Source: Paecilomyces variotii (taxonomy: Eukaryota). Taken from it: DNA of 64,000 bases. Position numbers and translations under genes: made by a program. The stretch lies in NCBI GenBank assembly GCA_004022145.1, contig RCNU01000001.1. One strand, 5' to 3'. This document shows, piece after piece, positions 23,182 to 55,658 of this stretch. Under the pieces are notes generated by a model that ran no database searches, was not told where the DNA came from, and worked only from the letters and a program-made list of their open reading frames with translations. Numbering within the stretch: the stretch's first letter is position 1; each line of letters begins with the position of its first letter.

Positions 23182-25449
23182 TCAATTTTCGATATTGAAG
23201 TAGTCTTCATTCACTTGATATCCCAATGGTGATATACCCAGACTAGTGTAGATGGCGGGATCTGAAATGTTTTGAAAGTCAGATGCTGGGAATGAGGATG
23301 ATGCCCGGGCATTGTCTAAATTTTCTGTCACATAGGCCAGTGACGGCTGCTCTGAGTGAAAGCTAGAGATAAAAGCTTCAGTATCAGCACCAGGAGCTGC
23401 AGCTAGGACATTAGCGTCCATATTTCGATTGAAGCCGGTGCTGTACGCGTTTGTTAGCCGGCGAGAAGTAACCGCCATGGGCACATAATCCGTCTCCCGG
23501 CTAAAATGAGAAGAATCGAACTGCTCCTTTCGCACAAGGCTCATCGTTCCAAAGTAAGGAAATGATAACTGGAAATAATCATTGTCCGTGTGATCGTCCT
23601 GCAGGATGGTATCTTGTCCACCACGTGCGATATAGCTTACCCCGTCCGCTGCATCAGCCTCGATATCCACGAGACGCTTCAACACTTGAATCGAAGGACC
23701 CTTGAATTGAAAGTCGGAATCAGGCGATAGCTTATCCATGAAATGAATCACATTGTGAATGACACCCAAATCCTGGGATCGCTGGTGCTCAAAGACATTT
23801 GCTTGCCCTAAACGGTGTCCATCGAGATGTGTCAAAAGAAGGGCCACTGAAGCTGTGTATGCCTTATCATCAAGGCCACGGAATGCTGTTTCACGGAGAA
23901 AATGTCGAGCTAGCATGAAACGAGAAAGTATCTCACGACTGGCGGAGAGGATGGCAAGTTTGCTGTATGTATAATCGATATAATGGCGACTAGACTCTGA
24001 CTCCTCCATCATCGAGATCCCAAGAAGGCTACGCAAAAGGTATGGCTGATGCGTTAAAACGAGAAGGTAATATTGATGCATTTGCGCAAGGAGCTTGCTG
24101 GTCACTTCCATTACTTCCGCATCTGTCACGCCAGGATTCAGAGCTGGGGTTACCCACCAGCTCACTGGCATAATTCGAGTGGCATGCTTCAACTCGTGAT
24201 CAATATCTTGTGTCTCTTTGTATTCCTCATTTGAACCATCCTTGGGGCTACCCCAATGAGTTTGGATGCGCAAGTTTCGTGAAATGATGCGTCCCGCGAT
24301 AAGGAAGTGCGTGCGCTCCAATTTTTCGAATGGTGGGTGGGCTGCCAGCAACTGCTTCATTGACCAAACGTCGTCATCAGTAGTAAGTGGAAGGCCAAGC
24401 ATCAGTGATAAAAAGCGCTCGCTGTATGTAAGGCGGAACCACATGAATTCCGCACGTCCAGCCTTCGACTGGGCCAGTTGAGGGAGGCGCATGAGCTGCG
24501 CAATTCCCAGAGCACGACGGAACACAAGCCACGCCAGGCGTAGTTCACCAACAGCGATATAGTAGCGTGCTTCTAGGATGAGGGTTTCCACGCCCTCTAC
24601 GGAGTTCACCAGCGAATCTTTAGAAGTGACATAGCTGGACGCAATCTCGATGTAGCGTCGCGCTGAATCACATGTGGACTCGTTAAATTGCAGTCCCAGC
24701 TGAGTGGACGTGATACTGTCTAGCTGATGCAGACAGATTGCTAGTTGTATAAACTTGCGGGCGAAGAAGACTGGATGCGATGTCAACGGTGGCAGCTGAG
24801 AAAGCTGGACCAACTCTTGCGTGTCCGTTGTACACAAGTTTCTTTGCTGCGAAGTCTCCTTGGGGACTTGGAAAGATAAACTAAATGATTTCCTGTGACC
24901 AAGGACGACCGAAATCCTATTCTCATGTGAAAGTATCGAGTGCAGGTAGCCGCTGAGCGACCGACATATAGATAGCGCATCCTGAGGGGCCGATGGCGAC
25001 GAATACAGCGGCAGTCTATTGTTCACACCACTCGAGAGCTGGAAATCGTTCCCAAGTGTGCCTGTTGTCAATATCCCTCCTGAGGTCTCCCCACGGACAG
25101 ATCTTTCCGATCCTGTCAGCTGCTGAGACAGACGATCTCGAGAAAGGCGGGCTGATCTTTGTCGAGTGAGCTGGCTCACTAAGCCCTCAACATGGACGAT
25201 GCGTTTTTCGACTTCTTCGAACCCATTATCGCCTGGTTCGGGAAATTCCTGGCTTATACATGGCAGGTCACGGCGCTGGCAGGAGAGACAGATAGAGCTG
25301 GCTTTCGGCCTGAACTCACAGCGCGTCTTGCGACGCTTGCATTCCCAGCAGCTAAAAGTGCCTTTGCGCAGCTTGGGTCGCTTGGAAATGCGATCTCCTT
25401 GGGTAGCACTATCAGCTTCTGGTATAGATAATTCATATGACGATGACAT
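23182..25449 (-). CDS. Zn(II)2Cys6 transcription factor
   Basis: RKGTFSCWECKRRKTRC...CLSCQRRDLPC binuclear cluster plus a helical fungal TF middle region. Intronless; first ATG at 25449. Confidence 0.92.
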   Translation of the reverse strand: MSSSYELSIPEADSATQGDRISKRPKLRKGTFSCWECKRRKTRCEFRPKASSICLSCQRRDLPCISQEFPEPGDNGFEEVEKRIVHVEGLVSQLTRQRSARLSRDRLSQQLTGSERSVRGETSGGILTTGTLGNDFQLSSGVNNRLPLYSSPSAPQDALSICRSLSGYLHSILSHENRISVVLGHRKSFSLSFQVPKETSQQRNLCTTDTQELVQLSQLPPLTSHPVFFARKFIQLAICLHQLDSITSTQLGLQFNESTCDSARRYIEIASSYVTSKDSLVNSVEGVETLILEARYYIAVGELRLAWLVFRRALGIAQLMRLPQLAQSKAGRAEFMWFRLTYSERFLSLMLGLPLTTDDDVWSMKQLLAAHPPFEKLERTHFLIAGRIISRNLRIQTHWGSPKDGSNEEYKETQDIDHELKHATRIMPVSWWVTPALNPGVTDAEVMEVTSKLLAQMHQYYLLVLTHQPYLLRSLLGISMMEESESSRHYIDYTYSKLAILSASREILSRFMLARHFLRETAFRGLDDKAYTASVALLLTHLDGHRLGQANVFEHQRSQDLGVIHNVIHFMDKLSPDSDFQFKGPSIQVLKRLVDIEADAADGVSYIARGGQDTILQDDHTDNDYFQLSFPYFGTMSLVRKEQFDSSHFSRETDYVPMAVTSRRLTNAYSTGFNRNMDANVLAAAPGADTEAFISSFHSEQPSLAYVTENLDNARASSSFPASDFQNISDPAIYTSLGISPLGYQVNEDYFNIEN

Positions 25450-26069
25450 TAGATGTATTTGAGTTCTCTTCAAATTGGTAACGTGGTTTTGGATGATCTT
25501 CGTTAGCAGACAATTGACGAACGGGACTCCCGCTTCGGGCGATCGGGAAAGTCGCCAGTTTGCGGCTGATTCCGTCTAGGCAAGCTATCGTCTCATGGAC
25601 CATAGCATTTTAATCTACGTTATTGGCAGGACAATGTAAGTCAAAAAAATGTACCTACAATCATGATGATCTTAGACGGCTGGCATTCGGGTCCCCGCAT
25701 CAATGCTAAAGGGAACAAAAGTCAAATGGTATGTAGTTTCCCTGGCAGATACAGATCCGGAATTGATGTAGCATTAATATATGGGTGTATGACGCATATC
25801 CTAGGCAAGGGGATGCAATTGCTATCGGCTATTGGAGTTCACGATCAAACGCTAAAGTTCGTATTGTTCCCCAGGAGCCTTAAGATGTAGTGATACAGTG
25901 AGTTTCGGCACATGGCTCTGGAAGTCCCCCAGAAATGCGGGGATTGCGGTGGAGAAGGGGAGAACGAAAATCCACCTCGTAGATCAAAGGGGAGGCATCC
26001 ACGTTCTTTCTTATCCCAAGAATATCTTCCTACAAAGGCGTCTGACAAGAAGGCAATGCACAGCAAACA

Positions 26070-28613
26070 ATGACCGAAGTAGAAGTACGCTCTTTCCTCT
26101 GCTCGATCTGTCACCAGTCATTCCGACGTCGCGAGCATCTTCGACGCCATATACTTTCTCGTAAGGCAGTATATCGTTCGTTGAAAGCAGTCTAACTGAT
26201 AGGCAAATCTAGACGGGGATATATTTCCCTATACGTGTTCATTTTGCGACGCGTCCTTTAAGCGCCGGTAAGTCCCATCTCGTTGACGCCCCCAATACTA
26301 GCATGGAAAAAGCTATGTCCTGATTTTGTCCGCGAAGTGGAAAGTGACCTTGAGCAATAGAGACGCCTTGACACGCCACCTAACAACATGCAAAATCCGA
26401 AAGAAGAACGGGGTTGGAATCCCAACTGCAGGACCAAAACAACCTCGCGGGAAGAGGCCAACGGCTTGTGATCGTTGTAGGAGATCCAAGAGAGCATGTA
26501 ATCTTGGGTTTCCATGCGACACTTGTATCCAGCGCCAGACCTCTTGCACGTACGAGAACTTGACTGACATGGTAGATGGCGGCGATCTTGAAGAACTCCA
26601 GCTATTTGATGAGTTGTCGACTTTCCACATCTTCAACTCATCTAATCCATCGAACAACGAAGGATTTCCTCTGGACAAACCAATAACTGGATCTCAAACG
26701 CTCTTTGTGGGTTCCACACTAGCTCAGAGTGAGCCATATCTAAAAGGTCTGGGAGATGACAGAGATCATACGGGGTCAACGCGGTTCTTCAATAGACTAC
26801 AAAGTCTGAGATTCTTGGAGCACTTCACCAGCTCAAGCGGAATTGCTGAGGCGTTTGAATGCGGAGAGACATCCGATTCGATCACTGACTACATGGTGTC
26901 TATGGAAATGAATCTGTCTGCTTACTCCCAAGACGGCTACACGAATGATAGCGACTCTTTCCTCATGGCTGGATATACTGAAGGATGCCCCCAGCCTCCT
27001 TGTGAGTCACTTCTGAGGGGTTTCGAGACCTTCGATCAGGGTAATTATTCTCCTCTAATGTTGACACTACCTTATCCGACTAGGTACTCACAACTATATG
27101 ATGAGGAAGGTTCTTCTGCGTTCCAATCGCATAATTTGGTATCGACACCAATACCTACTGCAGATCTCCACTCACTCGACCCCCTATCTGAAAAGACTCA
27201 CACCATTATCAGCAGTCTAAGGCGCACGGTTTCAGGAAAATGCCACAGTAGGTCACAATCATGGTCTTCAGTGAGAGAAGAACTTTGTCTGAAGTTGTTT
27301 TCGCCTGCTCGAATCCGACTTTTTCTCAATTTGTTTTGGTCCCAATGGCACCCAAACTGTCCCATTATCCACAAGCCGACATTTAATGCCGAGACAGCTC
27401 CAGAAGAACTCTTATGCCCTATGGTGGTTCTCGGTGCATGTACGTCTCCAGATATTGCTCATCGGAAAATCGCTGGCTTCTGGTTCGATATTGTTGAGGA
27501 ACTGGTGTTCACGAGTCCATTGTTGGATTTCGAGTGCAGCAGATCATACTCATGTGACTGCAACAGGCCTGTGAGCCGCAAAAAACTGCAAGCCCTCCAG
27601 GGAGCGTACTGCGTGTGTTTATATCAAAACTGGGATGGATCTGACAAAGCAAAGAGGCGCATCAGAAACCAACGTTTCACTGTTCTAGTCACTGTAAGAT
27701 CCCGCTCTATCCACTTTCTGTTTCTCAACACGAGATAACATTCCTGCATTTAGGCCGCTAGGGATATCGGCTTCGAATTCGCTACACATGATCAGCTCGA
27801 GATGAATGACCCTGGTCAGTTCGACTGGGGACGGTGGGTAGTCACAGAGGAACTGATGCGGTACGTCCGGGGACTTTTATAGTGAAGCGGATGTACTGAA
27901 TCTGACATGCAGGACAATGTCGTACATATTCCTGATCGACTCTGCATTTGCAATATTCAACAATTTACCCCCACGCTTCGTGATCAGTGAGCTCAAATTA
28001 GGGTTGTGCTACCCTGAGAGCTGTTTTCAGGCAGAGTGTCAGAACACGTGTTTCCAAGCAATCAAACGCGCATCAAGGCCGCCGAATGCAAGATTATCTA
28101 TAGCTTCTGCTGTCGAAGCTTTGTGCCACGAGGAGTTCGGTACCAGGCTCATTACGGACTTCTCACATATGAGTGTCTTGAATATGTTCTGCATCGTGTC
28201 TGGTATGCAATATGAACAAGGGAAGCTTGGTTACCATTTTCGCTGACTCTACAGCACTCCATATTGTCCTATTCACCCTCCGAGCATCGATTTCATCACC
28301 ACACCTGATCCAATCTATCAAGAAGGGGTTCTTGAACTGGGACAAGATCTGGATGGCCAATGCAGTGTACGAACAATTCGCAGGACGATATGACTTGCAG
28401 CAAGAACAACCTTGGAAGAAAATTGGGTTCATACGGCACTGTCGTGAATACTGTTTCTTGGGTTTGGTGATGTGCGAGAAGTTCCGATCTGAAACTAAAG
28501 GGGAAGAAAATTCCATTATACTGTCGGGAGTCTCAGGTCGATATGATGAGACAGATATGCGCCAGGTAAGCGAACTTATCAGACGGCTTCCGATGACCAC
28601 TTTAAGTAGCTAA
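26070..28613 (+). CDS. Transcription factor with two C2H2 fingers plus a Zn2Cys6 cluster and fungal TF domain
   Basis: Spliced: CSICHQSFRRREHLRRHILS|H, CSFCDASFKR|RDALTRHLTTC, then ACDRCRRSKRACNLGFPCDTCIQRQTSC, then FWSQWHPNCPIIHKPTF and FAIFNNLPPR. Confidence 0.9.
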
Positions 28614-29107: not shown

Positions 29108-29398
29108 AAGTCAATTGCCTAGGACTCTGTCAATTCGTCCCAAACTGTTGCATGAGTAAATACTTTCCCACAACTTTGGAGATCTTTACCGCCTTTTAAT
29201 GGTATGCTCGGCTTACGAGGGGGTGGGAAATCGCCGCAAGCCGAGAGCTAGCGTTCTTGGGCTAGCAGGGATTCAATGGGTCCTCGGTTGGGGATATAAG
29301 ATCGCCTGATCCAAGTAGTCAAGTGTTATCATCCCTGGATAGCGGTCGTTATCGTATGCCTCCAGATAACCTTCGTCTACTTTGATATCCAGCCCATC

Positions 29399-31479
<2,081 letters not shown>

Positions 31480-39673: not shown

Positions 39674-41024
39674 ATGGCCTCGTCAGATGCGCCTCCGGGT
39701 GTTGACCTCAATGAAGACATCAGATGGACTATTCTGGGTCCCGTGATTACTCTTGTGATCCTGGCGACAGCCGCAGTGGCTTTACGAGTTGCTTCGAGAA
39801 AAGTCTCGAACTTGCAATTACAATGGGACGACTATCTTATTATGGGAGCACTGGTGCGTGATTTGCCTGCTTCCGCCATATTTAGGGTTTTTGGGACACT
39901 GACAAGTTTGTTTTGAGGCAGGTTTTTGCATATGGAACCTGTGCTCTTACCATCGTAGGTACGAGAGATATATCGAACAACCAGGTACTGCTAGACGATA
40001 TGTGCTAATTGAAATTTCTAGGTTGTTATGAAGGAATTGGTAAACACATTTGGAGCCCGAAAGTAAACTTGACCGCGGTCTTGCAGGTGAGTATAAGATG
40101 TTCAACACCCAAAGCTGAGTTGAGCAGTCTAACAAATATGGTTGACAGTGCCTATGGGCGTATGAGTTCCTTTATGACACCATAATCCCATTTATCAAAT
40201 TGTCGATTATTCTATTTTACCGCCGTGTCTTCGACGTGCCGCGCTTCCAACGGGTTCTCAATTGGCTTGCCGTTCTGGTCATGGGCTGGTGGTTGGCAAT
40301 TCTCCTGGTGGTCATTTTCCAATGCATGCCCTATAGCTATTTTTGGCTGCAGTATACCGATCCGACGGCAAAAGGAAAATGCATAAATACAACCCAGTTT
40401 TATATCGGCAATGCTGCGGCCAGTGTGGTAACTGATTTTCTCATTCTGTTCTGTCCGATTCCAATGGTCTGGGGATTACAGATGCCTGTGGCTCAGAAAA
40501 TATCAGTCTTGGGTATATTCGCTCTCGGTGGTTTGTACGTATTCATTCTAACTCCTCGCCCTCAACTTCCAAACTCATGTTGTGTATTTAGTGTTTGCGT
40601 TGCTGGAACGGTACGGCTATACGCTCTCACACTGATCAACAAGTCATCGGACTTGACCTGGAGTCTGAACCAGACCTTCATTTGGACCTCTGTCGAGCCC
40701 TGTATCGGAATCGTGTCGGCCTGCCTGCCGACACTCCTTCCCCTTATTCGCCGCTGCTTTCCCAGATTCTTCGGACGCAGCAACCACCAGGACTCAAAGC
40801 CGACTTACGAGGCCGGTGCCGCAGCCAGGAGCAGGGACCAAGGTGGTGACTTTTACCCTCTTCACAACGGTCCTAAGCTGCGACCTGAGGATGAACTAGA
40901 GTTGACGACTAACATTGAAGGAAGTGACTTTCAACCACAATACAGTACTGAGGATGGAATTGATCGCTACAGGGGCATCCATGTCAAGCACGACATTGAA
41001 TGGAAGGCATCAACTGTTCTATGA
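39674..41024 (+). CDS. PTH11-like integral membrane protein (fungal rhodopsin domain, no CFEM)
   Basis: VALRVASR, WDDYLI, G(I)GKH, KLSIILFYRRVF, IFQCMP, TDFLILFCPIPMVWGLQM, WTSVEPCIGIVSACLP; several introns. Confidence 0.9.
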
Positions 41025-42097
41025 GCAACTCTAGTTCTTGTTCACCTATCAGTCATGTATTTCTATCCAATATTAAAATCCTAATTTCTTGTAAGCCATA
41101 CTTGTTATTGAAATCAGGACAGTGGTCCTATATCTAAAGAGTGTTTTGTCGCCTATAAATTGGTTCAAATTCAATAGCATGTGGTCTATCGATAAAGTAT
41201 CGGAATCTCTGACTTGAATGAAGCTGAGGAATATTACCTAAGATAACTTAGTTGCATCCAGAACTCACATTGGTTAAACAATGGAAACCCGAGAGAATGG
41301 TTCTCTATTTTTGGCTCTAATCCCATTTCTCTATTGGGGCTGGGCCTGATGCGTTTTAGCAATTACAGCTATGCTAATGAGATGAGCTCGACCAAGACGA
41401 CTGTATCATGGAGATTACAGATGAGAAGTTACCGGGGACTGTACCCGTTGTTGCTGGATTATAGCATCGCACGACGGCTCCCATCATTGAGGCACCACAT
41501 AATGTCCGTGTGGGTGAGGACCAAAAAAATGGACACTGCATTGGGCCCCGACTAGCTCCTAGTAATCTATCTAGCGTTAACCTCTGCTTATCCCACTTGC
41601 GGTTATTGTAGGTTAGGTATTTCCCCCATACTAAAAGTAACCATGGCTACTTAGGCAACAATAACGCGTGGAATTATGCGTACAGTATAGGCATCGCACA
41701 AGACGAGGGCGGTGCCCAGTACTCATTTTTGGGATTTTGCTAAATAGTGATCCAGTCCCACTTCAAACGTCACCTTATCTATACGGAGTACTTAGTACCA
41801 CTTAGTAGTACTTTGGTATCTACGGCTTCAGCTGCGCCGCCGTAGGAAAGGCACCCCGAGAGCCGATGACTAGGTAACAAAACCTCGCTAACTAACTACT
41901 TGGGCCCTCTCGCTGACGTTGAAGAGCTGCAAGGGCTTCACTGCAGTTGACCGGTGTCGCTCCGGGAGTCCGGTCTGTCTGTGCCTTTGCTTCGTCCTCA
42001 ATCAGTTGCGTGGTGTTCAAGCTTGAAGCTCGGAGCAGATTGCGGCAAGTTAACTGCCTCCGGAGTCCGGGGAGGTGGGTGATCGTCCAGCCAGTAG

Positions 42098-42517
42098 CGC
42101 GTATTTGGTTCAATATTCTCCGGGACAGACACTGCGCCTCAAAGCTGGTACAAGCTAATTCTACTAAAAGGACTTGGCATACATCTCTGTGCCCTTTGCC
42201 ATCGGAATTTTGACGATTTTTACGACCCAGGCTTTGTCCCGACCGATATCGAATGGTTTAAGAAGTACGAAGAATTAGACAAGGTTCGGAGGCCAGAACA
42301 GTATAACCGGCATCATAGTCGGGTCAAGAGGAAGTGCCCTGCAAAGGAAGAAAAAACACTTCTTTTGGTTGTAAACAGCGGCAGAAGCCTTATTGTCTGT
42401 CGGATCCGGCAAGGGTTGAGATTTTTGCGGCGACTGCTATGTTTTATGCTATCTATATTGGTTCGGGATTTTAGAACAACCCCTGACCCTGAAAAGCTGT
42501 CTGGAACCCTTAGATAA
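42098..42517 (+). pseudogene. Relic of a fungal HNH-endonuclease-like gene
   Basis: Stop-to-stop frame with no ATG upstream of the motif, reading GIHLCALCHRNFDDFYDPGFVPTDIEWFKKYEELDKVRR. LCxxCHxxFD resembles the distal half of an HNH motif. Confidence 0.45.
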
Positions 42518-43690
42518 TATCCTGTATTTGGGTGGGATTATGCCGCATGCCGGAGAGCTACACAGCTCGAATCCCAACCCCAGGCGCTGACCTTGTGACT
42601 GAGATCCTCGTTGGTTTCACGATTGATTACAGATTTACCTTTCCACGAAGTAAATCACCAGTACCACTTGATGCAGAGAACAATGTCGCTGAACGAGTGA
42701 CGAGTATTAAATGATCAAGTACGACATAAAAAGTAACGCTATATCCCGAATGACAGAATTCTCGGTGCCAATATACAATCTCCAAGGATCTGTTGTGTTT
42801 TTAAGAGGATGGCTAGGATATTTCCAGCATGTACCTTTATGAGCTTCTATAGCGCTGTAGCCACCCAACCTCAGATAGTATGCCTATACCAACCGAACGT
42901 AAATCCTATTTACTTAGGCTCGCCCAAAGAAAGCAGGTGAAGAAGTCCACGTTTCTCCAGGTCTTGACAGAGTTCCTTTTTAGAAACAAATCCCTCTCCC
43001 GGGAGGATTGGATTCGCCTTATCACAGCTTTCGCCATTGGGCTTAGCGGTTGTCGCCTCGCTGTCGGTGCGAGATACGACTGACAGTCATAGGCCATCGG
43101 ATAATGGGAATTGTTTCGATGGGGGTTCTCGCTTCATCGTCTCTATAACCCGGAAGTTATGCAACTCCTCTAGAGACAATGTCTCTTGATTCTCACAGGC
43201 TACCTTCGAGACCTCGTATCTTATCGAAAAATCGCCATTGGTAATTGAGGACCTCGTGTTCAACGATGATTTATATCAACCCGGGTCGGTTCGCCGCTTC
43301 CTTTTGTTTTGTTTTGTTTATTTATACTACAGGAAAACATTTGTATAGAGATAATGAAATCAGTTGACCTCGCAATGCGACAAGTCTAAAATCTCAAATA
43401 TGCCCCTCTTTAGATCCGCCGTGTTCTTATGGGTGGTGATCTTCCTCTTGGCATAGATTAAGTTCGATGACGAGCTTGCTCATGTCCATTGTATCATGCA
43501 GCAAGGTGACTCGTGTTATTCATGAGTTTTATCACGAGCTCGACGCTCTTGATGGCGTCATGTCAGAAAATCCATTCTATTGTCTATTGTATTGTCTACA
43601 CCCCTGTTCTTTAACTTGCTTGCCACTGCTGTTGTATATGCGTTGTGTGTGTCTGAGTTAGATTCGTTACCACGTTCCTTGTCGATAATA

Positions 43691-45669
43691 ATGGCTGCTC
43701 GAATTGAAGGTTCAATTGAAGACCGCGCTGTTGGTGTTCTAGGTATGTACTGTACATACATACATCTTGGACAATCTCTCTATCACCGTTTGTATTCTAC
43801 GATTACTAACTGTATCGTTCAGGTGGTGGTCAATATGGCCGATTGCTCAGCGAAGCCGCGAGTCGACTGTCTATACCCGTTCTGGCCCTTGATCCCTCCC
43901 CAGCAGCTCCCACCAAGCAGATCAGCGCCGCATCTCTCCTCAACTCGTCTCTTACACATGTTGATGGCTCTTACACCAATCCAAACGACATTCATTCTCT
44001 AGCTGAGCGAGTCGATGTCCTCACAGTCGAGATCGAGCATGTGGACGTACAGGCACTCTTCCAGATCCGTGACAAATATTCCACCACTGGCGGTAACTTA
44101 GGAAAAGGCATCGAGATATTCCCGTCTCCAGAAACGATCGCAATTGTTCAAGATAAGTTGCTTCAGAAGCAGCTCTTGAGGAAAGCAGATATTCCAGTTG
44201 CTGATTTCATCGACCTTCCGGATCCAACCGTTGAGAGCGTTTCCCAAGCAGCCAAGACACTTGGCTTGCCACTGCTACTCAAATCTCGCAGGCAAGCTTA
44301 TGACGGTCGAGGGAACTTCTTGATCCGTGATCTTGACGACGTTCAGCTTGGCTTGGACAAACTCAAGGCTCCGCTCTTTGCTGAACGTTACGCGACGAAT
44401 GTTACCCATGAGGTCGTCGTGGTCCTCGTGCGTAATGCTAAAGGCGAAATTCGAAGCTATGGAGCAGTTGAGAATGTTCATGCTGGAAAGATTGGCCATC
44501 TTGTTCGCGCTCCTCTGAGACAGGGAGGAAAAGACGTAGCCATTCGCGCACAATCGATAGCAGAGAAAGTTATCAGTTCACTGCCTGATGGTGCCGTCGG
44601 CGTATTTGGTGTAGAGTTCTTCCTGTTAGATGACGGCAGGTGAACATACGACCCCTGATCATATTAATACTAACATTGGAATGAGCAGGAGCATTATTTG
44701 TCCATGAGATCGCCTCTCGTCCACACAGCTCTGCTCACTATACCGTCGAAGCCTGCGAGACATCGCAATACGAGAACCACCTCCGTGCCATTCTTTCACT
44801 TCCACTTGGCAGTACGGAATTGAAGGCTCTCTCGGCCGCAACGTTAAACCTGCGCAGCACGCCTGAGACCGCTGAAGAAGTTCGTTCCGTCGTCCGCAGG
44901 CTCTTGAGACTCCTGGGGCCACTTTGCACCTATACGGGAAGAAGGAGGCACCAGGAAAAGCCGATTCTCCCAAGGGACGTAAGATCGGCCATATTACTGT
45001 GGTTGGCCCCTCCGATGCGGACGTTAATGATCGCATCCATAAGATCATAGGATCCTTCAACAATGACCCTCTTGTTCCAAAGCCGCTCAAGTCTCATCCG
45101 CTGCCGCTCGTGTCGGTGCTAATGGGCTCCGACTCTGATCTGCCTAGTATCCGCGATGCAGCTCGCATCCTAGATCAGTTCAAGGTGCCATTCGAGACTC
45201 GTATCGTCTCTGCCCATCGTACCCCAACGCTCATGAACGACTTTTGCAAGGAGGCTGCTTCTCGCGGCGTCCGCGTCATTATCGCTGGTGCTGGAGGCGC
45301 TGCCCATCTCCCAGGAATGATAGCATCTGAATCGAACCTGCCCATTATCGGTGTTCCCGTCAAGGGCCCCACGCTTGACGGTGTCGATTCTCTTCATTCT
45401 ATTGTTCAAATGCCGGTAAGTATTATATCATCCCCACGCGGCGAAATTTGGATGGAAGCTGATGTTTGGTCTAGAGAGGAGTTCCAGTCGCTACTGTTGG
45501 AATTAATAATTCCACCAATGCAGCCTTGCTTGCGATCCGCATTCTCGCTATCACTGATCCAAAATATGCCATTGCGATAGAGGAGTACAGAGCGAATATG
45601 GAGCAAGTGGTGCTGCAGAAGGGAGAAAGACTGAATGAGCTTGGCTGGACATTGGATGGTGGGAAATAG
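43691..45669 (+). CDS. ADE2: Divergent ADE2-like PurK-PurE fusion (N5-CAIR synthetase/mutase) with an apparent 1-nt frameshift; possibly a pseudogene or sequencing error
   Basis: [107 protein letters not shown]. Introns 43743-43822, 44636-44688 (GC-AG) and 45416-45474. Frame jump at about 44897. Confidence 0.88.
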
Positions 45670-46061
45670 CCGTAGCTTACGAAAGTAACAAAGAGCACAG
45701 ACTTCAGAGAGAATAATGCCAAAGATTTAGTCTTCCACTAAGTATGTGGGGTAACTATCGAAACAATAGGATCTTTGTCCGGTTAAGCTTCGCCCCAAAA
45801 TATTCGGAAGTATAGGTTAAAAACACGCAATCACTCGTGCCTTCATTGTCACAACAGATCCAATACATGGATCAGAAATAGAATAGTTTTGAACCTAACC
45901 TAACGCTAGAGAGATTCCATTGCAATGATTTGAGAGAAGAGCGGAAATGTTCGTATACAATAGGTTGAGCAGAATTCATTGGTATCTTCGCGAATTCAAA
46001 GTTCGGGATAACATGCTGTCAGAGAATGTTCTAAAATAAACTAGCAGTATCACGACTGTCA

Positions 46062-47607
46062 TTAATTCTTGAACCCATTCACCCCCTCCTTTATCTGCCA
46101 CACGGGCTCATAATACCAGCGCGGCACAGGACGCTCGCTGCGCTCAATAATGTCTTCGAAGTTCTGGTTGACGAGCAGCTTGCCATTTCGGAACACTGGA
46201 CGGAGTAGATTCTCCTCTCCTTCCTTGAGATCCTCCTTTCGGACAGTAGTGTATTCGCCATCGCGGATCACCAGTGCTTGTCTGCCGCGTTTCGAGGTCT
46301 TCGCAGAATCAGACTTTGGCTGCTTATAGATATCTCTCCATTCGCCGTCTATTTGGACTGCGTTCGCCTTCTGAGTGAAGGCAAGCGTGTCACGGTTGAT
46401 GTACTGGAGCAGACCGCCGCCCATGCCCAAGTAAATATTGTCGGCGGATAGGCCGCGACGATCAAGCTCGGCGTAAATTCGCTTCAGAGAGGGAATGGTA
46501 AGGCCATCACCCTGTGCAGCTCGAATGTAGTCTGGAAGGACTTTGTAGCCTTTCGAGTTGGTCGTCGACCCGAACTTCTCAACAAGACCCTCAATCGTCT
46601 CGGAAATCACTGTTGGTGGATCCCCGGAGTCAGGTCGCACTAGGATAACGCTGCCTGGTCACGCGAAGTTGATCAGTAATTTGCAAGAATATCTAACTAG
46701 TAACTATGGCGCGAGGCCTCGTTATTTGTTGCTTACCACTGTTGATGACCTCATCCTTGAGTTTGGTGCCGAATATCTCCTTGACGGCATTCTCCAAGTC
46801 GTACGAGTCAGATACAGCCACAACGAATGGCCAACCCTTGTACTGTTTTATCAAGTTCGCGTGGGCGTCAACCTCGTGGTCCTTTCCCCATGCCGTTACC
46901 GTCGAGTGTTCCGAGTTAGGTTGGGAAATAGCAGGGTTGAGAGCGTTGTAATAGAGAGTAGCCGCGAGAGATCCGGAGATGGTGTTCGTCTGTCGGAAGT
47001 TGACGAGATGCGCCAGTCCCCCCAGAGCTGCAGACTCTTGGGAACTCACTCCACGAGCACCATAGTCTTGCAAGACGTCTCGAAGGATTTCCGGGTGATC
47101 CGAGGTCTTCTCCAGTGCTTCGCGGATGAGCTGCTTTGCAAGCCAACTCGTCGTTCCAACAGAAGTAGAGTACCAGACAGATCGAAGTAGAGCCGTTTCA
47201 ATGAAGCTCGTCACCCAGGGATACTTCGGATCTGTATTGACGATCTGAACGAGGACGTTCTTGATGGGTAAGACCGTCCCCTCGGGAACTGCTTCAATCT
47301 CCACAGGGAGATAGCCGTTGTGCTCATTGACGATCCCAAGCCAACCTTCCCTGTTGAATGGAATTTGATGCTGACGCGTGACAATCTCTGCCTCGTCGAT
47401 ATCATCAATCGTGATCGGGCGGAGCAAGTGCTTTTTGATAAAGGCTTGTAGACCAACGAATAGATGGGCCGGATATTCGCCTCCGCGCGACTCTATGTAA
47501 CTGGAGACATGCGTTGTGTTCGGAGGATAGAGATTCCAGTGCGAATGTTTGTAGGTGTCCGTATTCAGGATGATATTATCGAAGTTGGAGAGTAGTCTGG
47601 GAGACAT
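46062..47607 (-). CDS. Nicotinamide phosphoribosyltransferase (NAMPT/NadV)-like protein, bacterial type, 487 aa
   Basis: TDTYKHSH, YIESRGG, GLQ, FNREGW, EAVPEG, NTDP, ETALLRSVWY, DYGARGVSS, AHLVNF, EHST, SDSYD, RPDSGD, QGDG, GMGGGLLQ..NRDT, SKRGR. Intron 46655-46736 (GTAAGC...TACTGAT...CAG) restores the frame (NSG|SVILVRPDSG). Confidence 0.92.
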
Positions 47608-49218
47608 CTTTCCTATCTAGACAATGTACTTGGAAAAGAATGAGCAGAACCAGTCAGTCTCTTGTGAATAGGGGCAATCTACTGGGAAAAGGTGCTTCTT
47701 CAAATAGTTCATCTTGCTGTCGCATGTTAAACCAAACGTCAACACCATAACTCATGGCGTGACTATAAAGTTCCGAGCGATCGGTGGTGGATAGAATGTC
47801 GTAATACGAAGAGTGCATCAGATCTTCTTTTGCTGATGGGCCTATTGACGCGTTTCATGCGTAGTCTACGAGAGGAAAACATCGTTCCTTCGTCCCTCTC
47901 ACGGAGATTATCGATTTCTATGATGGACAACAATCTGATCTTGATTATGCATAATCCAGATAAACGTATATATGTCTATATAGGGATAGAAATCGTTAGA
48001 TAGTACTGTGATGGAGGCTATAAGGACAGATAGAGTTTGAAGAGAAGCTACTCTACAAACCTTAGAGCATGTGGTCTATAGTATAAGATGCGCAAAAATG
48101 AGAGTAGATACCACGGATTCAATCTTCATAGACCCCGATCCTGGGCGGCAAGATGGGGATGGAGAGCCAACTACGTGGTAGCGTTGCCATGGTAGTTCCC
48201 CAGTGTCGGGAAATTGGAAGTAATTGCTGTCAATCATTGTTTCCACTAAGCTGGTTACCGAGTCAGATGTGCAGCTAGATGATTATCGGACTTGAATCAC
48301 GCCATTCTGCAGCGTTTTCGTGAATGCTTAACTCAGGAAGGTTCGTACTGTAAGGACTCGGCTGTGCAGAACAGTTCCCCTCTCTGTAATAGGTCCTAGT
48401 TTGAAACTAAGCTACTTATCAAATCCCGAGTCAGGAAAACTGTTTGGGAAGATGTAGAGGTTGAATAATCTGGAGATCAAATCACGCAACGTCCCATCGA
48501 GGTTGCGCATCGCTTTCCTATCTATGGCAGAAACAATGGCTTTCTGCAGATAGACTGAACTTTATTGTTTTCCAGATAGGCGATATGTTAATAACAACAA
48601 TTCGTTGAATGACAAATTACATAGAAACCTTGGGAGGCGAGCATGTTACCACGGATCCTTACAGTTAGTAGCTAGGGTATCGCGTGTGTTCCTGGAATTT
48701 TGGTCAAAGTATTCCCAGCCATGATAATGACTTAGAGGAAGTGATCCTATCCGAATTTCTGATCTACGCGCTTTGTTATATGGTCAATTCCCATTAAACA
48801 TTCTGGCGTGGTTGCTGCGAATGTGGAGCGTTCATACAATTCTTTCACTCATCAATATTTCACTTCTTTGTCTGCTGACAGAGTGACATTCTCTGACGAA
48901 TAAGAGGGAAGAATAGCTAGGCAAAGGCATTTCTAGTTTGAAAGATTCGAGATACTCAATGATTTCACTTTCGAGGCTGGATGCTAACAAAGGAGATTCA
49001 CATATTCGGCATACTCATTATTTAACAAAGATATTTCCATTGACGATGGCAGTGAAGCCTTTTGGGGAATGTTCCTACAGCCATTCACGTATCTATCGGT
49101 AGGAGACGACCAGTTCGATTGCTCACGCATGAATTCGAGGGTATAAATTATCCACCTTCTCTGCACTAAATCTAAGAAATCAAGTCCACGAAAAGGTTTG
49201 CCTCCATTTTGTTCCACA

Positions 49219-50109
49219 ATGTCCGACAACATCCAGGATAGGCTTTGTGATGTTCTCGGGGGGTCTTTGTCTCTCCTGGATTCCTTGAAAGGGATACTAC
49301 CATCCATGGAATGGAAACGCAATGTCCGCGTCGGAGATGATGACAGCGCAATTATCATTAGTGCCGGCATCGCGAATAAGTTGACGCTGTGCACTCTCGG
49401 TGATGATTACAGCAACTCCGACATTGCGCGCCATCTTTCTGAGATATACGATTTCCGGTTTGATGAGAAGGTGATAGATGACTATAGAAACCTTAAAGCA
49501 GAGGGCACCGACGAACAGTCCGATATTTCAGGCATTCACTATGATTCTGGTGAGGTCCCAGTCGGACTGCTGAAGAAAGCCCTCGCTCTGGGGAACGAAG
49601 GGTTCAGTATAGAGTTTTGCATCGAGTACTTCCGTGCAAAGTATGGCGTGACCATCTCGCCAAACTCCCTGGAACAGGCTGTCTATGACCTCAGAACTAT
49701 AATCGCCGAGGAAGCAAATCGGTTTGACAACGAAACTCGCGCCGGGCTTGATTCCCTAATCATACACAAGCAAGAGCTCAATGAGGATGGGGCAGGCGTA
49801 TCTGAAGAGTCCCAGCGTTACCTCACCAGATTGTTCGTGGGAGGAATTGCCAATTGTGAAGCCTCGACTCTGAGGTTGTCAGGCGGTCAATTTGCTGAGC
49901 AAGGCTATGCGACCAATGCAAACGACATCGTCCTGAAAAAGCGACAAGATCTTGAGGAAACAATCCGCGCTATTAAATCAGGTCCTAAGCCAAGCATGGT
50001 CACTTCGAACAATAACAATGCTTCCACATCGTCCTCTGAGTTTTCCGACAGACTCGATAGCCTTCGCATGAAGATTGCAAGGTTGATGAAGAGCAAGCAA
50101 GAACGATGA
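49219..50109 (+). CDS. Orphan protein (296 aa), intronless, possible duplicated helix-turn-helix-like unit
   Basis: Long ORF from ATG 49219; no family recognised. Confidence 0.7.
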   Translation: MSDNIQDRLCDVLGGSLSLLDSLKGILPSMEWKRNVRVGDDDSAIIISAGIANKLTLCTLGDDYSNSDIARHLSEIYDFRFDEKVIDDYRNLKAEGTDEQSDISGIHYDSGEVPVGLLKKALALGNEGFSIEFCIEYFRAKYGVTISPNSLEQAVYDLRTIIAEEANRFDNETRAGLDSLIIHKQELNEDGAGVSEESQRYLTRLFVGGIANCEASTLRLSGGQFAEQGYATNANDIVLKKRQDLEETIRAIKSGPKPSMVTSNNNNASTSSSEFSDRLDSLRMKIARLMKSKQER

Positions 50110-50439
50110 TTATCTTGCGCCTGTCGATAGACCGAGGCTGGCAACCAATGGAGCATACACTTCGATGCAAGGTCCGGATCAATTCCGAGTTGACCCCGCG
50201 CGATCGCATATTGTTAGACAGAAAATGAGCAAGAGCAAGAGATATTGCCTTTCTCGGTGTAATGCGCCTCCAGAAGCAATCTGAGAGGTCGATTTGGGTG
50301 CCATTTACGGGCAGGGCGGTATGTACCCGAGAAGCTCAATAAATCCATAATACAATCAATAATTCTTGTCAAAGGTCGCCTGATCCTTGCCTCGTTCATT
50401 TGTATAGTCGTAGTGAGGAAAGTAGTTTAGCGATGTCTG

Positions 50440-51403
50440 TCATCTTGTGGATAGTTCGGGCTGCGATAGTCTTTCGAGTAAGCTCTCAATTCTTCTATTG
50501 CCGCCGGTCATCGCATCCTCGGTCCTCTTGTCTCTACCATGATCCCCAATAATGACAACACGAGCCACTTCGCCGTTATTTGAAATCTTGAATCGCCCGA
50601 CACGTCCATCTTCCCATTCTAGACGTACGTATCTCGCTTCGAGTGAGGTGGGAGACAACGAGATTATACCAAGTTTGTTGGTAGGCACGCCTTCATCGAA
50701 TGACACTGGTTGGGAAGGGTCAGAACGCGGCAATTTGAGTCGTTCTCGCAACCAGTCGATAGCATCCGAGCGTAAGTGCCACGCGACAAGTTCCTGCCTT
50801 AAGTCGCGAACAAACGCAGAAAGGTTCTGTTTCCTCGTCTTTGAAGCTCGTATCTCGTCAACTTCACCATCCGCTCCTCTGGGGACCACGGGTAAATATC
50901 TCTGCTCCAGCTTCTCCATCGAAATAAATGCAGGGATTGTATGACGGTGTACGCGGAGCCGTTTCCCATCACCCTTATCCCGTTTCAGCAGGACATAGTA
51001 CGGTTTGGAAAATCGTCCATCGCGCCTGCAGATATCAATCCTAATCCCCAGCAGATTTCGAGAGTCCGCGTATGGCGATGGATCGGTGAAGGGAAAGGTC
51101 GTGGCTGAGAACGCGATCCGGTGATGGTTAGACTGGCTGTGTTTTCCTGCGCCTAGCACCAACGGGGAGATCTCATGGTTGTCTGCCGGAGATATGTGGT
51201 TCTGGATATGTTTCTGAACGAATTCAGAGGCAAGGAGACTGTTTGAGAGCAATCTTCGTCTCTTCTGCATAGACCTTACTTAAACTCATTGTCAGGATGC
51301 GGTCGCGCAATGTGGATTACAACAACTCACTTTCTTCTCGAATAGCGATTATTTCAGCATCCTCTGTCGCTGTAGAGGCGTCGCTTTGCGGACTCGAGGC
51401 CAT
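50440..51403 (-). CDS. MCM21: Kinetochore protein CENP-O (Mcm21/Mal2)
   Basis: HRIAFSATTFPFTDPSP, LLGIRID, PYYVLL, LRVHRHTIPAFI, WEDGRVGR. First exon 51403-51331, intron 51279-51330. Confidence 0.85.
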
Positions 51404-51836: not shown

Positions 51837-53000
51837 TCATTCATATCTGCGATCATTGTAACCACCAATCAGCTCGACAGAACCGTCCTCTCTCTTCTTC
51901 TTTTCATAGATGTCGGGATTCAACTGAACAGTCTGCTTCGCCTTAACCCACTCAGCCATAGTAACTGGCTTATCGAAACGTGGCTTCACACCCGCTTTCT
52001 GAAGGACTGGCGAGTCATTGATGGGATACAGGACGGTATCACTGTGAGGTCGCGCGAAATATAGCAAACCTGTCCGATCATATTGCCATTGGTCCTTGGG
52101 AGGAGCCACCACACGATGAATGGAGCTCTTCAGATAGCCACCAGTCAAATGCGAAAGTGTGTCAGCCAGATTAACCGTAATAGTTCCGGGCTGCGCTGAC
52201 ACGTATGTCCATTTCCCATCTTCTCCCAGGATCTGCAATCCAGCAACGGGTTGGCGGAATAGAAGCGTCAGGGAGCCCAAATCGGTGTGGCCGCCGGACT
52301 GTCCGTATCCGCTAGCCTCATGCTCCTCCGGAGTACGTTTGTTATAGATCATATAACGGAAATGATCCTCGCTTCTCTTCTCGTATGTATGTTGCTTAAC
52401 GAGGTATTCCTCATCTGGAAGCTGTAGCACGATAGCGAATAGTCGCAGCAGAGGCAGAATGACATTCGAGTGCAGGGCCTTTGCGAATATCTCTATCTCC
52501 GGCAGGTGGGCTTTAATCAGGTCGGGATGATTGTACTTCCCCTCAAAGTCCTTTGTGAACTTGGCGAAGTTGTACATTTCGGTGTTGTCTTTGACCTTTC
52601 CCACGTTTCTCAGACCAGCGCGCCGATAGCCATTATAATCCGCATTGGCATAGTCGACTTGATATTTCAGCTTCTCCTCAACAGGCAGTGCGAAAAAGTT
52701 GCGCGCCAGTGTGAATTGGCGATCGACTTGTTCCTGTGGGAGACCAAAGTTCTTGACGTAGAAGAACCCGACATGATGCACAGCGTGCTCCAGCTGCTTG
52801 GCTAGTCTCTCCTTGCCACCAAGGCGATCGAACTCCTTGAGATCAAGGGTAACTAGTTCCGCCCATGGCAGGTCCTCCTTTGTTTCTGGGGGATGGACAT
52901 AAGGCTTCAGGTGGCTGAAATCATACTGCTCGGGGTTTTTGACAGAATCAGCACCACTTAGAGTGGGCAGTTGCGCCGTTTCAGTGAGAGTAGCTGACAT
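51837..53000 (-). CDS. 2-oxoglutarate/Fe(II) oxygenase, IPNS/DIOX_N family
   Basis: VGFFYVKNFG, FFALPVEEK, HTDLGSLTLLF (HxD), GLQI, VNLAD, SSIHRV (distal His), RTGLLYF. Intronless. Confidence 0.93.
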   Translation of the reverse strand: MSATLTETAQLPTLSGADSVKNPEQYDFSHLKPYVHPPETKEDLPWAELVTLDLKEFDRLGGKERLAKQLEHAVHHVGFFYVKNFGLPQEQVDRQFTLARNFFALPVEEKLKYQVDYANADYNGYRRAGLRNVGKVKDNTEMYNFAKFTKDFEGKYNHPDLIKAHLPEIEIFAKALHSNVILPLLRLFAIVLQLPDEEYLVKQHTYEKRSEDHFRYMIYNKRTPEEHEASGYGQSGGHTDLGSLTLLFRQPVAGLQILGEDGKWTYVSAQPGTITVNLADTLSHLTGGYLKSSIHRVVAPPKDQWQYDRTGLLYFARPHSDTVLYPINDSPVLQKAGVKPRFDKPVTMAEWVKAKQTVQLNPDIYEKKKREDGSVELIGGYNDRRYE

Positions 53001-53955
53001 ATTGTGTTCGCGGATAGAGCTTGAGTTCTATACGAGTAGATGTGCTGGAGTTTATTCCCAATATATCCTAAACAGCTCTCTTGGTATCAAGAGACCTTTA
53101 TATAGGGAGTACCTCGTATTAACCTTGACCAGGTATGTAACCCGAGGTTTAAGCGATGAGCTGATATCTCTTCACGAGTCTTCATATCCCCTGTTCATAC
53201 TTTCGGAGTCTTTCCGCTGCTGTATCCTCATAGGGGGGATATTTATAACCAAATGACACCATCGTAACGACTGTGATGCAATCTGGATGATAACAATGAT
53301 TGGACAAGCAAGGGATCTGGGCTCTCTCCGCGCCAGATGTTTGAAACATGAGGGTCAGCCAAGAATCGAGATATTAGATAGCTGATTGATCACCTGGGCC
53401 GTTATCATCGATGCATAGTGCATAATCACAGGGAGAGTGAGAGAGCCTATGACATGGAAATAGTTTCCCGACGTCTGTTTCTCTGTTGGGACGAGAATGC
53501 ATAGCGGTATACTGCCAGCGACTGATGCATATCTTAATCCATGGAATCCAATTAAAGCAACGGACTCATTTTGTTTGCTACCCCGCACTTATAGAACGCT
53601 ACATGAATCACAATCTCACTCGTCGAGCCACAGAAAGAGGTATACGAGTAAGATCAAGAGGACCTATTTAATGTAAGTTTTGCCGCAATCCATCTACAGA
53701 ATAATAGTCTGCAATATTATTCTTCTCATATCTCCATCAAATGCGGGGTATAGATATCTAGACTCGAACTCGTCGGAATCCCTGTCAGATCTATATTCCT
53801 GTTGACGGCATCACGCCATATCATGCCGGATTGCGAAGTACAGCGCACCATCCGATCGCATTTCGTTATCGAGCGCTTAGATTCCGAATATCGATAGTTC
53901 TGTGGACCATTTATCGAGCCTAAGATCTGTTTTACCGATAGATCGCTAGTACAGT

Positions 53956-55658
53956 ATGGCATACCCAAGGATCAAATCTGTGGCTATTATCGGCGCTGGG
54001 GCGGCAGGTAACAAACACTTTATCACCCATTGATCCACATGGAATGGATAGATTTAACTTTCCCCAATAGGTGCTGCGGCTGCTGCTGCATTCGCAGCAG
54101 AAAATTACTTTGATACGATTCGTGTTTTCGAGAGACGCGAAACAGCCGGAGGCACATGGTACGGTGTAACATACTCCCCCATTAGACATCCCCAACTGAT
54201 CTGATGGAATCCTAGGATCCATGATCCAGACCCGACTCCTCTTCTGAGGCCTCGGCCAGGAGCCCTGCCTACAGAAATTGATCCTCCTTTAGAGATACCA
54301 AGAGACCTACCTACAACGACACCTCCATCTTCCCAAGAGCGATATGAGAAAACACCGATTCATGAAGAACTCACGTGAGTGATATACTGGAATCAATTCA
54401 AATATCCATGCTAATACAGCTTTCCAGGACTAATGTCCCTTCAATTGCAATGTCATTTTCAGACGTTCGATTTGCATATGGGCCATTCATTCCTCATTGG
54501 GTGGTTAAACAATACATAGAGAGCTACTTTTCTAAGCACCACACTGATTCACTATTGGTACTAAGTACTACCGTTGAAGATGTGACCAAATTTACCAGTA
54601 CTTCAACTGGAGCTGACAAATGGTCGCTCACTCTAAGACGATATGATCCTGTTGCTCAGGTTGACGTGTGGTGGAAAGAAGAGTTTGATGCTGTCATATT
54701 TGCCAATGGACACTACTCTGTGCCATATGTCAGTACTCGATCTCACCTAACATACATTCAGTATGCTAACGTTGTTCTCCACAAGGTGCCCAAAGTGGAC
54801 GGCTTGGAGGAATATATACAAAATTTCCCCGGCCGGGTCATCCACTCCAAATCATATCGATCCGCTCTCAACTTCAGGGATAAAAGAGTCCTCGTGGTTG
54901 GAAATGCCGCATCAGGACATGACGTTACTACTGCTCTTGTGAAAACAGCGAAACATCCAGTCTATCAGTCCAGAAGATCTCCTTCTCGATGGGATGGCGA
55001 CAAGCCACCGCCTGGAATCGAATGGAAACCTGTCGTAAAGGAATATCTTCCGAACGGCGATATTATCTTTGACGATGACACAGTTCTATCAGATATAGAT
55101 ACAGTCATCTACAGTACCGGCTACAGAGCTTCTTTTCCTTTCTGGAACTCCCACGCCAATGGTGGCCCCATATGGGATTACCGCCAGGATCGTCTTATTG
55201 GGAACTATCTCCATATCTTCATGAGGAACTTCCCGACGCTAGGGATCGTCGGAATCCCAAGAACGCTAACTTTCCGATCCTTTGAATATCAAGCTATCGC
55301 TCTGGCACGGGTCTTTTCCGGACGAAATGCCGTCGCGCTTCCGTCAAGAGAACAGCAAGCGAGGTGGGAAGAAGAGCGCTGGAATCTCGTCAGTCGAGAA
55401 AGGAGGAAGTTTCACGATATCCCATGGGATAACGGCGAGACGGTTACGTATTTGAATGAGCTGTTCCATCTGGCAGGTCTGCCGTTGTTGAGTGGTGAAG
55501 GCAGGTACCCGCCGATCTTGAATGAGCAAACAAGATGGGCTATCGAGCACGTCAAAAGGTATCCGGAGCCTCGCCATGATAACAATAAGAAGGAGGAGGA
55601 GGATCGATGGACGGTCGTCCACCCTGCTGCGTATAAGGATAGTTTGCATTTCATTTGA
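53956..55658 (+). CDS. Flavin-containing monooxygenase (FMO, class B)
   Basis: VAIIGAGAAG, VFERRETAGGTW, FDAVIFANGHYSVP, IHSKSYR, VVGNAASG, STGY, FEYQA. Multi-exon; ATG 53956. Confidence 0.93.

Follow-up and report, generated by a model that had tools for sequence, protein, structure and literature searches.

The window analysed here is a stretch of 64,000 nucleotides (nt) of contig RCNU01000001.1 from Paecilomyces variotii (assembly GCA_004022145.1), and its locus of interest is a pair of genes that face each other. The first gene (43691-45669, +) encodes a PurK-PurE protein of the ADE2 type with four Pfam domains; the second (47607-46062, -) encodes a NAMPT-family protein with NAMPT_N and NAPRTase domains as assigned by Pfam. 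They are referred to below as the ADE2-like gene and the NAMPT-like (or transferase) gene. The limits of the region, 43691 and 47607, are the ATG codons of these two genes, respectively. The stop codons lie at 45667-45669 (ADE2-like) and 46062-46064 (NAMPT-like), and the genes are arranged tail-to-tail across a spacer of 392 nt. A preliminary description of this DNA, made from its letters alone, had reported two converging ribotide-enzyme genes about 390 nt apart in a gene-poor stretch. This arrangement was confirmed, and no Pfam family was found for the flanking open reading frames (ORFs).

The gene structures were determined with the help of public sequencing runs aligned to the locus: X1 (DNA), X4 (RNA), X15, and X17, the last being a metatranscriptome that contains another strain. 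The strain in X15 and X17 differs from the window by about 2%. As shown in Table 1, the ADE2-like gene consists of four exons. The first intron occurs at the same position in the fungal metagenome contig L022 (=L021). Exon 2 has no in-frame Met; therefore, removal of intron 1 is needed for translation. The second intron is of the GC-AG type. Its joint in X17 (44634>44688) slides by up to 2 nt, and a slide of one base gives the 53-nt GC-AG intron, the removal of which yields an in-frame LLDDG/ALFVHE as in the intact allele P0121 and in P0271. A second frameshift at 44636-44688 was considered and rejected, since this segment is the GC-AG intron seen spliced in X17. The 586-amino-acid (aa) models of P. 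variotii (P0123, P0124, P0126, P0127, P0269, and P0270) choose an upstream GT donor at this intron; they lack nine conserved ATP-grasp residues (VEFFLLDDG) because the GC donor is unused. Decay of the gene across many strains was also rejected, as it came from the two-frameshift model, and the 586-aa models skip only those nine residues.

The ADE2-like gene of the window has exactly one real lesion, the 1-nt deletion after 44898. The missing G is present in X15 (42.8/42.8) and X17 (10.7/10.7), and absent from the DNA of X1 (0/132.7) and the RNA of X4 (0/53.1). The deletion cuts away the end of PurK and the entire PurE in the window strain. The broken allele is restricted to the lineage of this strain: of 11 readable full-length P. 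variotii gene models, 9 have the site unbroken, and only P0122 and P0271 step round the break. Of the two apparent breaks, only the one at 44898 is a real frameshift, and the one at 44636-44688 is not. The best P. variotii protein matches of the pair are DTO164E3_1717 and DTO164E3_1718, with 99% and 97% identity, respectively.

The spliced coding sequence of the NAMPT-like gene is complete and encodes 487 aa, identical to P0258 (P. variotii RWQ99034.1 and KAJ9361785.1). Codon 147 (47167-47169, -) is Ser in the window and Pro in 112 of 112 homologues. Ser147 is also found in P0256 (strains DTO207G8 and DTO169E5); therefore, it is older than the ADE2-like frameshift. To judge from the sequences, this replacement may be a mark of relaxed selection on the gene pair in this sub-lineage. 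With the ADE2-like deletion and the NAMPT-like Pro147Ser together, the pair is decaying in the lineage of the window strain.

Table 1. Positions of the exons, introns, domains, and other features of the ADE2-like and NAMPT-like genes in the window.
Feature	Positions	Strand	Remarks
ADE2-like exon 1	43691-43742	+	52 nt from ATG, 17 codons and first base of a Gly codon; tblastn P0121 aa 1-18, 100%
ADE2-like intron 1	43743-43822	+	80 nt, GTATGT...CAG, TACTAAC branch site
ADE2-like exon 2	43823-44635	+	PurK N-terminal and ATP-grasp domains; 98.5% identity to P0121 aa 18-289
preATP-grasp and ATP-grasp (PF22660, PF02222)	43825-44637	+	Pfam
ADE2-like intron 2	44636-44688	+	53 nt, GC-AG; spliced in metatranscriptome contig X17 record 4
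ADE2-like exon 3	44689-45415	+	ATP-grasp end with loop motif, PurK_C, PurE start; tblastn match passes from frame 3 to frame 2
1-nt deletion, one G of AGGG	44898-44899	+	strain-lineage-specific; frame then meets stop 45048-45050
PurK_C and AIRC (PurE)	44900-45412	+	Pfam
ADE2-like intron 3	45416-45474	+	59 nt, GT-AG; spliced in both X4 record 11 and X17 record 5
ADE2-like exon 4	45475-45669	+	PurE end and TAG stop; tblastn P0121 aa 532-595, 100%
Spacer between stops	45670-46061		poly(A) site of ADE2-like gene near 45735; NAMPT-like 3' untranslated region to at least 45948
NAMPT-like exon 2	46062-46654	-	NAPRTase, stop 46062-46064; 100% identity to P0001 aa 291-487
NAPRTase	46062-46658	-	Pfam
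NAMPT-like intron	46655-46736	-	82 nt, GTAAGC...CAG; joint 46653>46736, cut +1, X4 record 13
NAMPT_N and NAPRTase (PF18127, PF04095)	46693-47607	-	Pfam
NAMPT-like exon 1	46737-47607	-	NAMPT_N and start of catalytic domain; Gln180 (human His191), Asn208 (human Asp219), Ser147

Both genes are transcribed. The X4 contigs match the window without a difference and are spliced at the NAMPT-like intron and at ADE2-like intron 3; they therefore represent RNA of the same strain. In X17, the ADE2-like RNA is spliced and polyadenylated, and NAMPT-like contigs occur as well. The poly(A) site of the ADE2-like gene was placed by loose A's behind 45735 in X17, and the extent of the NAMPT-like 3' untranslated region by the start of X4 record 13 at 45948. 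No meaning is attached to gaps in the cover, such as 46614-47298 of the NAMPT-like gene in X17. ADE2-like intron 3 also occurs unspliced, in X4 record 10. Another X17 contig has a run of 24 T's before 43698, just inside the ADE2-like start; it may mark where an antisense transcript is polyadenylated, or it may be a library artefact. Stretches of the locus also occur in food and grain fermentation metagenomes and metatranscriptomes (X11-X20).

The two genes are neighbours in other fungi. For named species, adjacency was judged from consecutive protein accession numbers and equal contig sizes. By this measure, the pair is adjacent in P. lecythidis and in many strains of P. variotii, as well as in Capronia epimyces CBS 606.96 (EXJ84180/81), Exophiala dermatitidis (EHY52839/40 and four further assemblies, five in all), and Hypoxylon sp. 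NC1633 (KAI2621591/92). At the DNA level, L022 carries both genes 1.9 kb apart in the head-to-head (divergent) orientation. A NAMPT-like neighbour is thus present in all six lineages (6/6) where the ADE2-like gene was found, so the check proposed in the preliminary description, whether the pair stays together in unrelated taxa, came out positive. Comparison of the 21.5-kb L022 locus with the 64-kb window by tblastx revealed nothing in common beyond these two genes. Between the window and L022, the proportion of nonsynonymous differences (pN) is 0.14 for the ADE2-like gene and 0.10 for the NAMPT-like gene; the proportion of synonymous differences (pS) is about 0.77, which is saturated. The low pN with saturated pS indicates strong and long-lasting purifying selection on both genes. 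In most P. variotii strains, the pair is a core chromosomal locus.

Both proteins have clade-wide substitutions at otherwise conserved positions of the substrate pocket, as had been proposed from this one locus. Residues of the NAMPT-like protein were numbered by alignment to human NAMPT (chain 4o1a). In an alignment of 112 sequences, His191 is replaced by Gln and Asp219 by Asn in 16 of 16 members of the window clade, and His and Asp are present in all 96 other homologues (0/96 changed). These two positions are the sole columns that are invariant within both groups yet different between them; further clade-fixed changes align to human 242, 244, and 245. Asp219 sets the nicotinamide specificity of NAMPT, according to PMC7096376. 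Among the catalytic and binding residues listed in PMC3665594, Tyr18, Arg196, His247, Asp279, Arg311, Asp313, Gly353/Asp354, and Gly383/Gly384 are retained in the NAMPT-like protein. Phe193 is Tyr, likewise in other bacterial homologues. The protein scores 552.4 bits with the NCBIfam equivalog model NF006629 (cut-off 405), and matches bacterial NAMPT 7yqo with E = 7.5e-129 and human chains with about 1e-104.

The changes in the ADE2-like protein are confined to its PurK half. The comparison used the 151 columns in which 54 canonical ADE2s agree to 95% or more, and a column counted as changed if 6 or all 7 of the paralogues differ there. On this count, 14 of 90 PurK columns and 0 of 61 PurE columns are changed (Fisher p = 0.0008). 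All six surveyed paralogues and L022 contain the motifs HE[IV][AST]SRPHSSAH and GGGQYGRLL; canonical ADE2s with a pattern match have NE.APRPHNSGH and GGGQLGRML, or close variants. The counterpart sequence in Aspergillus clavatus PurK is CEIASRIHNSGH. Four of the PurK changes lie within the loop bearing the residues aligned to A. clavatus Arg271 and His273. Family models draw the same line: with TIGR01161 (purK, cut-off 318.4), the paralogues score 278-308 bits (5/5 below) and the canonical proteins 322-404 bits (5/5 above); with TIGR01162 (purE, cut-off 149.6), all five paralogues pass with 161-205 bits, and the canonical proteins pass too. The class I PurE motifs MGSDSD, SAHRTP, and GGAAHLPG are present in the ADE2-like protein.

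Phylogenetic trees suggest different origins for the two genes. Fungi are generally held to lack NAMPT. In a quick NAMPT tree, the window protein belongs to a 26-row clade with at least 81% identity (Shimodaira-Hasegawa-like approximate likelihood-ratio support, SH-aLRT, 100; stem 0.77). Its 14 fungal rows cluster together (100) and are embedded in sequences from Gordonia, Corynebacterium, Mycolicibacterium, and Mycobacterium. The window row in this tree is a 485-aa splice variant, and its placement beside P0001 is unaffected. The fungal genes have a common intron. Of 401 genomes sampled from that bacterial order, just 5 have any NAMPT homologue, and this clade occurs only in the centre genome. 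The nested fungal group, the common intron, and the rarity in the bacterial order support a single acquisition, apparently from Mycobacteriales-type Actinobacteria to fungi. The bacterial-like character ascribed earlier to the NAMPT-like gene was thus upheld.

The ADE2-like gene had been called a basidiomycete-like ADE2 paralogue. In the ADE2 trees, seven paralogues form one clade (SH-aLRT 100, stem 0.9) joined to the basidiomycete ADE2s (97); nine canonical ascomycete ADE2s form a separate clade (100). Forcing the paralogues together with the ascomycetes costs 16.3 log-likelihood units, and this grouping is not rejected by the approximately unbiased (AU) test (p-AU = 0.097). The basidiomycete affinity is therefore favoured by these trees, though not proven. 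Besides the paralogue, Hypoxylon sp. NC1633 carries a canonical ADE2 (P0517, 608 aa) on a different contig; for at least one carrier, this directly shows the ADE2-like gene to be an additional copy. Of the earlier claim, the extra divergent copy stands, and an ascomycete affinity is still compatible with the AU result. The inner topology is equal in the NAMPT and ADE2 trees, with Paecilomyces grouped with Hypoxylon, and Capronia with Exophiala (support only 85-91). This topology conflicts with the species relationships, and the conflict hints that the pair may have spread from fungus to fungus.

The bacterial relatives of the transferase, NAMPT genes of several phyla, are found in operon-like gene sets. 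In Corynebacterium sp. CNJ-954 (L002:5881-9461), the transferase gene is followed by an orotidine monophosphate (OMP) decarboxylase-like gene, a CinA/PncC-like amidohydrolase gene, and a haloacid dehalogenase-type (HAD-IB) phosphatase gene; this set is bordered by IS110-type and rve-type transposase genes. The same gene set lies 3' of the transferase in L017:9812-13477. Parts of the set stand behind NAMPT genes of the Asp type in L003, L004, L005, L018, and L019. L001 has a remnant of it, with a piece of the decarboxylase-like gene joined to the HAD gene. The OMP-decarboxylase-like TIM barrel scores well below the pyrF cut-offs. PurK and PurE were looked for in the neighbourhoods of the bacterial transferase genes, and none was found.

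Taken together, the best-supported reading is that the pair forms a conserved and co-inherited module of two xenologues with clade-fixed changes at substrate-defining positions, which is transcribed, under selection, and dispensable in culture. A shared pathway may be inferred from the linkage, the congruent history, and the complementary chemistry of the two enzymes. That they are functionally coupled in one pathway acting on a 5'-phosphoribosylated heterocycle is put forward tentatively as the best explanation, at somewhat short of an even chance. In such a pathway, the transferase would couple phosphoribosyl pyrophosphate (PRPP) with some base that is not plain nicotinamide. This base would be an azole or pyridine with an amino or carboxy substituent; the most specific guess is an aminoimidazole-type base, giving aminoimidazole ribotide (AIR) or an AIR analogue. 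Using ATP and bicarbonate, the PurK half would then carboxylate the exocyclic amine, after which the unchanged PurE half would shift the carboxyl group to the ring, leading to purine metabolism at the level of carboxyaminoimidazole ribotide (CAIR) or to a related ribotide. Because the PurE half is unchanged, entry of an aminoimidazole at AIR/CAIR is the most consistent guess. A pyridinium route is also conceivable by analogy, given the LarB precedent and a weak LarB match.

Taken to its most specific form, this scheme would describe a new ribotide, for which the Asn219/Gln191 transferase loads a non-nicotinamide heteroaromatic base, and the remodelled PurK together with PurE carboxylates it with ATP. 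This specific form is considered quite unlikely. If it is true, the product would be a new purine entry at AIR/CAIR, or else a mononucleotide of carboxylated pyridinium or imidazole that serves as a cofactor or antimetabolite, and the route would be a eukaryotic pathway that combines a gene from bacteria with one of basidiomycete type.

Several observations weigh against functional coupling. The substrate of the module, as read from the sequences, is a guess. Glu73, Asp153, Arg271, His273, and Lys353 (A. clavatus PurK numbering), which we take to be catalytic or AIR-binding, are all retained in the alignment to 3k5i. With these residues kept and the PurE half unchanged, the ADE2-like protein may simply be a working AIR carboxylase. 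On the transferase side, NAMPTs of the Asn type and the Asp type occur in the same kind of operon, which fits ordinary pyridine nucleotide salvage, and the bacterial operon weakens the case for an exotic substrate. Rasamsonia emersonii has a NAMPT-like protein (P0241) and no ADE2-like protein among the listed protein matches; it may be a carrier of the transferase alone. The adjacency itself could last by descent alone if the pair spread as a single piece. Contig depth is no gauge of co-expression, and the expression of the two genes was not ranked by it. At least one viable strain lineage has a broken ADE2-like gene, so the module is dispensable in culture. ADE2-like intron 1 is unspliced in the RNA contigs X4 record 9 and X17 record 3, and intron 2 is kept in X4 record 9; contigs running through introns can't show that spliced forms are absent. 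The unspliced introns could be due to regulated retention or poor processing.

The strongest alternative is that two independent acquisitions merely travel together: an enzyme for one-step salvage of nicotinamide to the mononucleotide (or, with Asn219, a nicotinate-tolerant one) and a spare AIR carboxylase. In this view, the genes would be neighbours only because they came together once and were then passed on, by descent or transfer, in a single piece. The catalytic machinery is intact in both protein sequences, the NAMPT-like protein scores above the NF006629 cut-off (552 against 405 bits), and all 61 invariant positions of the PurE half are canonical. The bacterial relatives of both types share an operon with a PncC-like nicotinamide mononucleotide (NMN) deamidase, and Rasamsonia may hold the NAMPT-like gene alone. 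However, the adjacency has outlived a one-gene inversion and synonymous saturation, while every other flanking gene differs. Both proteins also have fixed clade-wide changes (16/16 versus 0/96 in the transferase, and 14/90 PurK columns), and a spare housekeeping ADE2 is not expected to remodel its AIR loop and then keep it under purifying selection. Mere co-travel is regarded as possible, though doubtful.

The lesions of the window strain suggest another explanation, that the pair is a decaying relic without present function, comprising an ADE2-like pseudogene and a drifting NAMPT-like gene. The 1-nt deletion after 44898 is real in both DNA and RNA of the strain, Pro147Ser affects a residue invariant in 112/112 homologues, and introns 1 and 2 are kept in the strain's RNA contig. 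No sign was seen of an active truncated PurK product or of a bypass of the deletion, either of which might have overturned this explanation. It holds only for this strain lineage, however; the deletion site is intact in 9/11 readable P. variotii models, the NAMPT-like reading frame is complete and correctly spliced, and both genes are under strong purifying selection across species. As an account of the pair in this window, a relic without present function is unlikely.

The surroundings of the pair bear on the remaining claims. The flanking ORFs for which no Pfam family was found lie at 41247-41555, 41892-42257, 42098-42517, 48984-49406, and 49147-50109. The closest genes with Pfam domains are a Fung_rhodopsin gene (40146-41024) and CENP-O (50440-51279). 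By Pfam, the window elsewhere encodes pantothenate kinase, DFP, an aldo-keto reductase, Zn-cluster factors, and a Fung_rhodopsin-domain gene, together with CENP-O, a 2-oxoglutarate (2OG) oxygenase, a flavin-containing monooxygenase (FMO)-like gene, an acetyl-CoA transporter, and Yae1; ankyrin and MARCHF6-like genes are also among the neighbours. The remainder of the 64-kb window looks like ordinary chromosome, housekeeping genes included. The preliminary description had suggested a horizontally mobile mini-cluster. As a recent mobile element, this was not borne out: the search for repeats flanking the pair (40500-50500) gave short chance-level matches only, and no Starship-type tyrosine recombinase domain was found in the 31 window ORFs scanned, small and interrupted ORFs lying outside the scan. 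A Starship, an element suggested by the literature on P. variotii, thus has no support from the ORFs covered. The synonymous sites, moreover, are saturated. Beyond CENP-O, a 2OG-Fe(II) oxygenase gene (-) and the FMO-like monooxygenase gene (+) occupy 51837-55658, and two Zn(2)Cys6 factor genes (23182-27738) are followed by a FAD-binding-domain ORF (29300-30004); no tie of these genes to the pair was seen.

The weakest explanation takes the pair for part of a system that makes a nucleoside or ribotide analogue, for example an imidazole-carboxamide nucleoside, or that protects the producer against it. This is very unlikely: both enzymes act on phosphoribosylated heterocycles and have altered pockets, the patchy distribution suggests horizontal transfer, and repurposed purine-pathway paralogues are found in nucleoside-antibiotic clusters, but the pair is all that the window and L022 have in common, no transporter, regulator, or tailoring enzyme conserved between these two loci stands beside it, its neighbours are CENP-O, Fung_rhodopsin-domain, ankyrin, and MARCHF6-like genes, the PurE half is canonical, the pair is a core locus in most P. 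variotii strains, and no publication tying it to a product was found among the papers searched. The earlier idea of a nucleoside-antibiotic or mizoribine-type cluster accordingly found no support, with only two genes in common and neighbours that are housekeeping or unrelated.

The papers searched also contained no description of the NAMPT-like/ADE2-like pairing. The enzyme families themselves are textbook material; what appears to be undescribed is their pairing, along with the Asn219/Gln191 clade and the remodelled PurK half. If coupling holds, the pair would represent a small eukaryotic module made of two horizontally acquired genes from different donors and kept together by selection. It would also offer a ready hypothesis of a new substrate specificity, tied to a residue that is known to determine which base NAMPT accepts. 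Among the carriers are Exophiala dermatitidis, an opportunistic black yeast, and P. variotii, a mould of food and industry, and an extra route related to NAD or purines may affect their physiology. For annotation, the GC-AG intron is mis-modelled in the 586-aa models and the allele of the window strain is broken; therefore, an intact allele is advisable for experiments.

Comparison with known systems indicates both likeness and difference for each gene. The NAMPT-like protein resembles NAMPT/NadV (EC 2.4.2.12) in its NAMPT_N and NAPRTase domains and in the retained SDSYD Asp, GDG, and GGG motifs; however, the window clade has Asn219/Gln191, and the window gene is a bacterial xenologue with a gained intron. 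The ADE2-like protein shares the four-domain architecture of fungal ADE2, with E = 4.5e-71 to the A. clavatus N5-CAIR synthetase structure 3k5i, whereas the window copy falls outside the canonical ascomycete clade, has a PurK half below the TIGR01161 cut-off, and is frameshifted in this strain. LarB, a pyridinium carboxylase/hydrolase of nickel-pincer cofactor synthesis, is a PurE-family enzyme, and its model matches the PurE half of the window here only weakly. It is a precedent in possible logic only, namely the carboxylation of a nucleotide derived from nicotinic acid, which belongs to the product class of NAMPT/NAPRT-type enzymes; PMC7583248 describes carboxylation of the pyridinium ring of nicotinic acid nucleotide by LarB. 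The PurE half of the window differs in that it scores 30 bits with NF033503 (cut-off 175) and has the motifs of class I N5-CAIR mutases. A parallel in gene organization is the bacterial operon, which has the same transferase clade and an adjoining enzyme of a ribotide carboxylase or decarboxylase family. The fungal partner, in contrast, is PurK-PurE instead of an OMP-decarboxylase-like barrel, and CinA and HAD are absent from the window.

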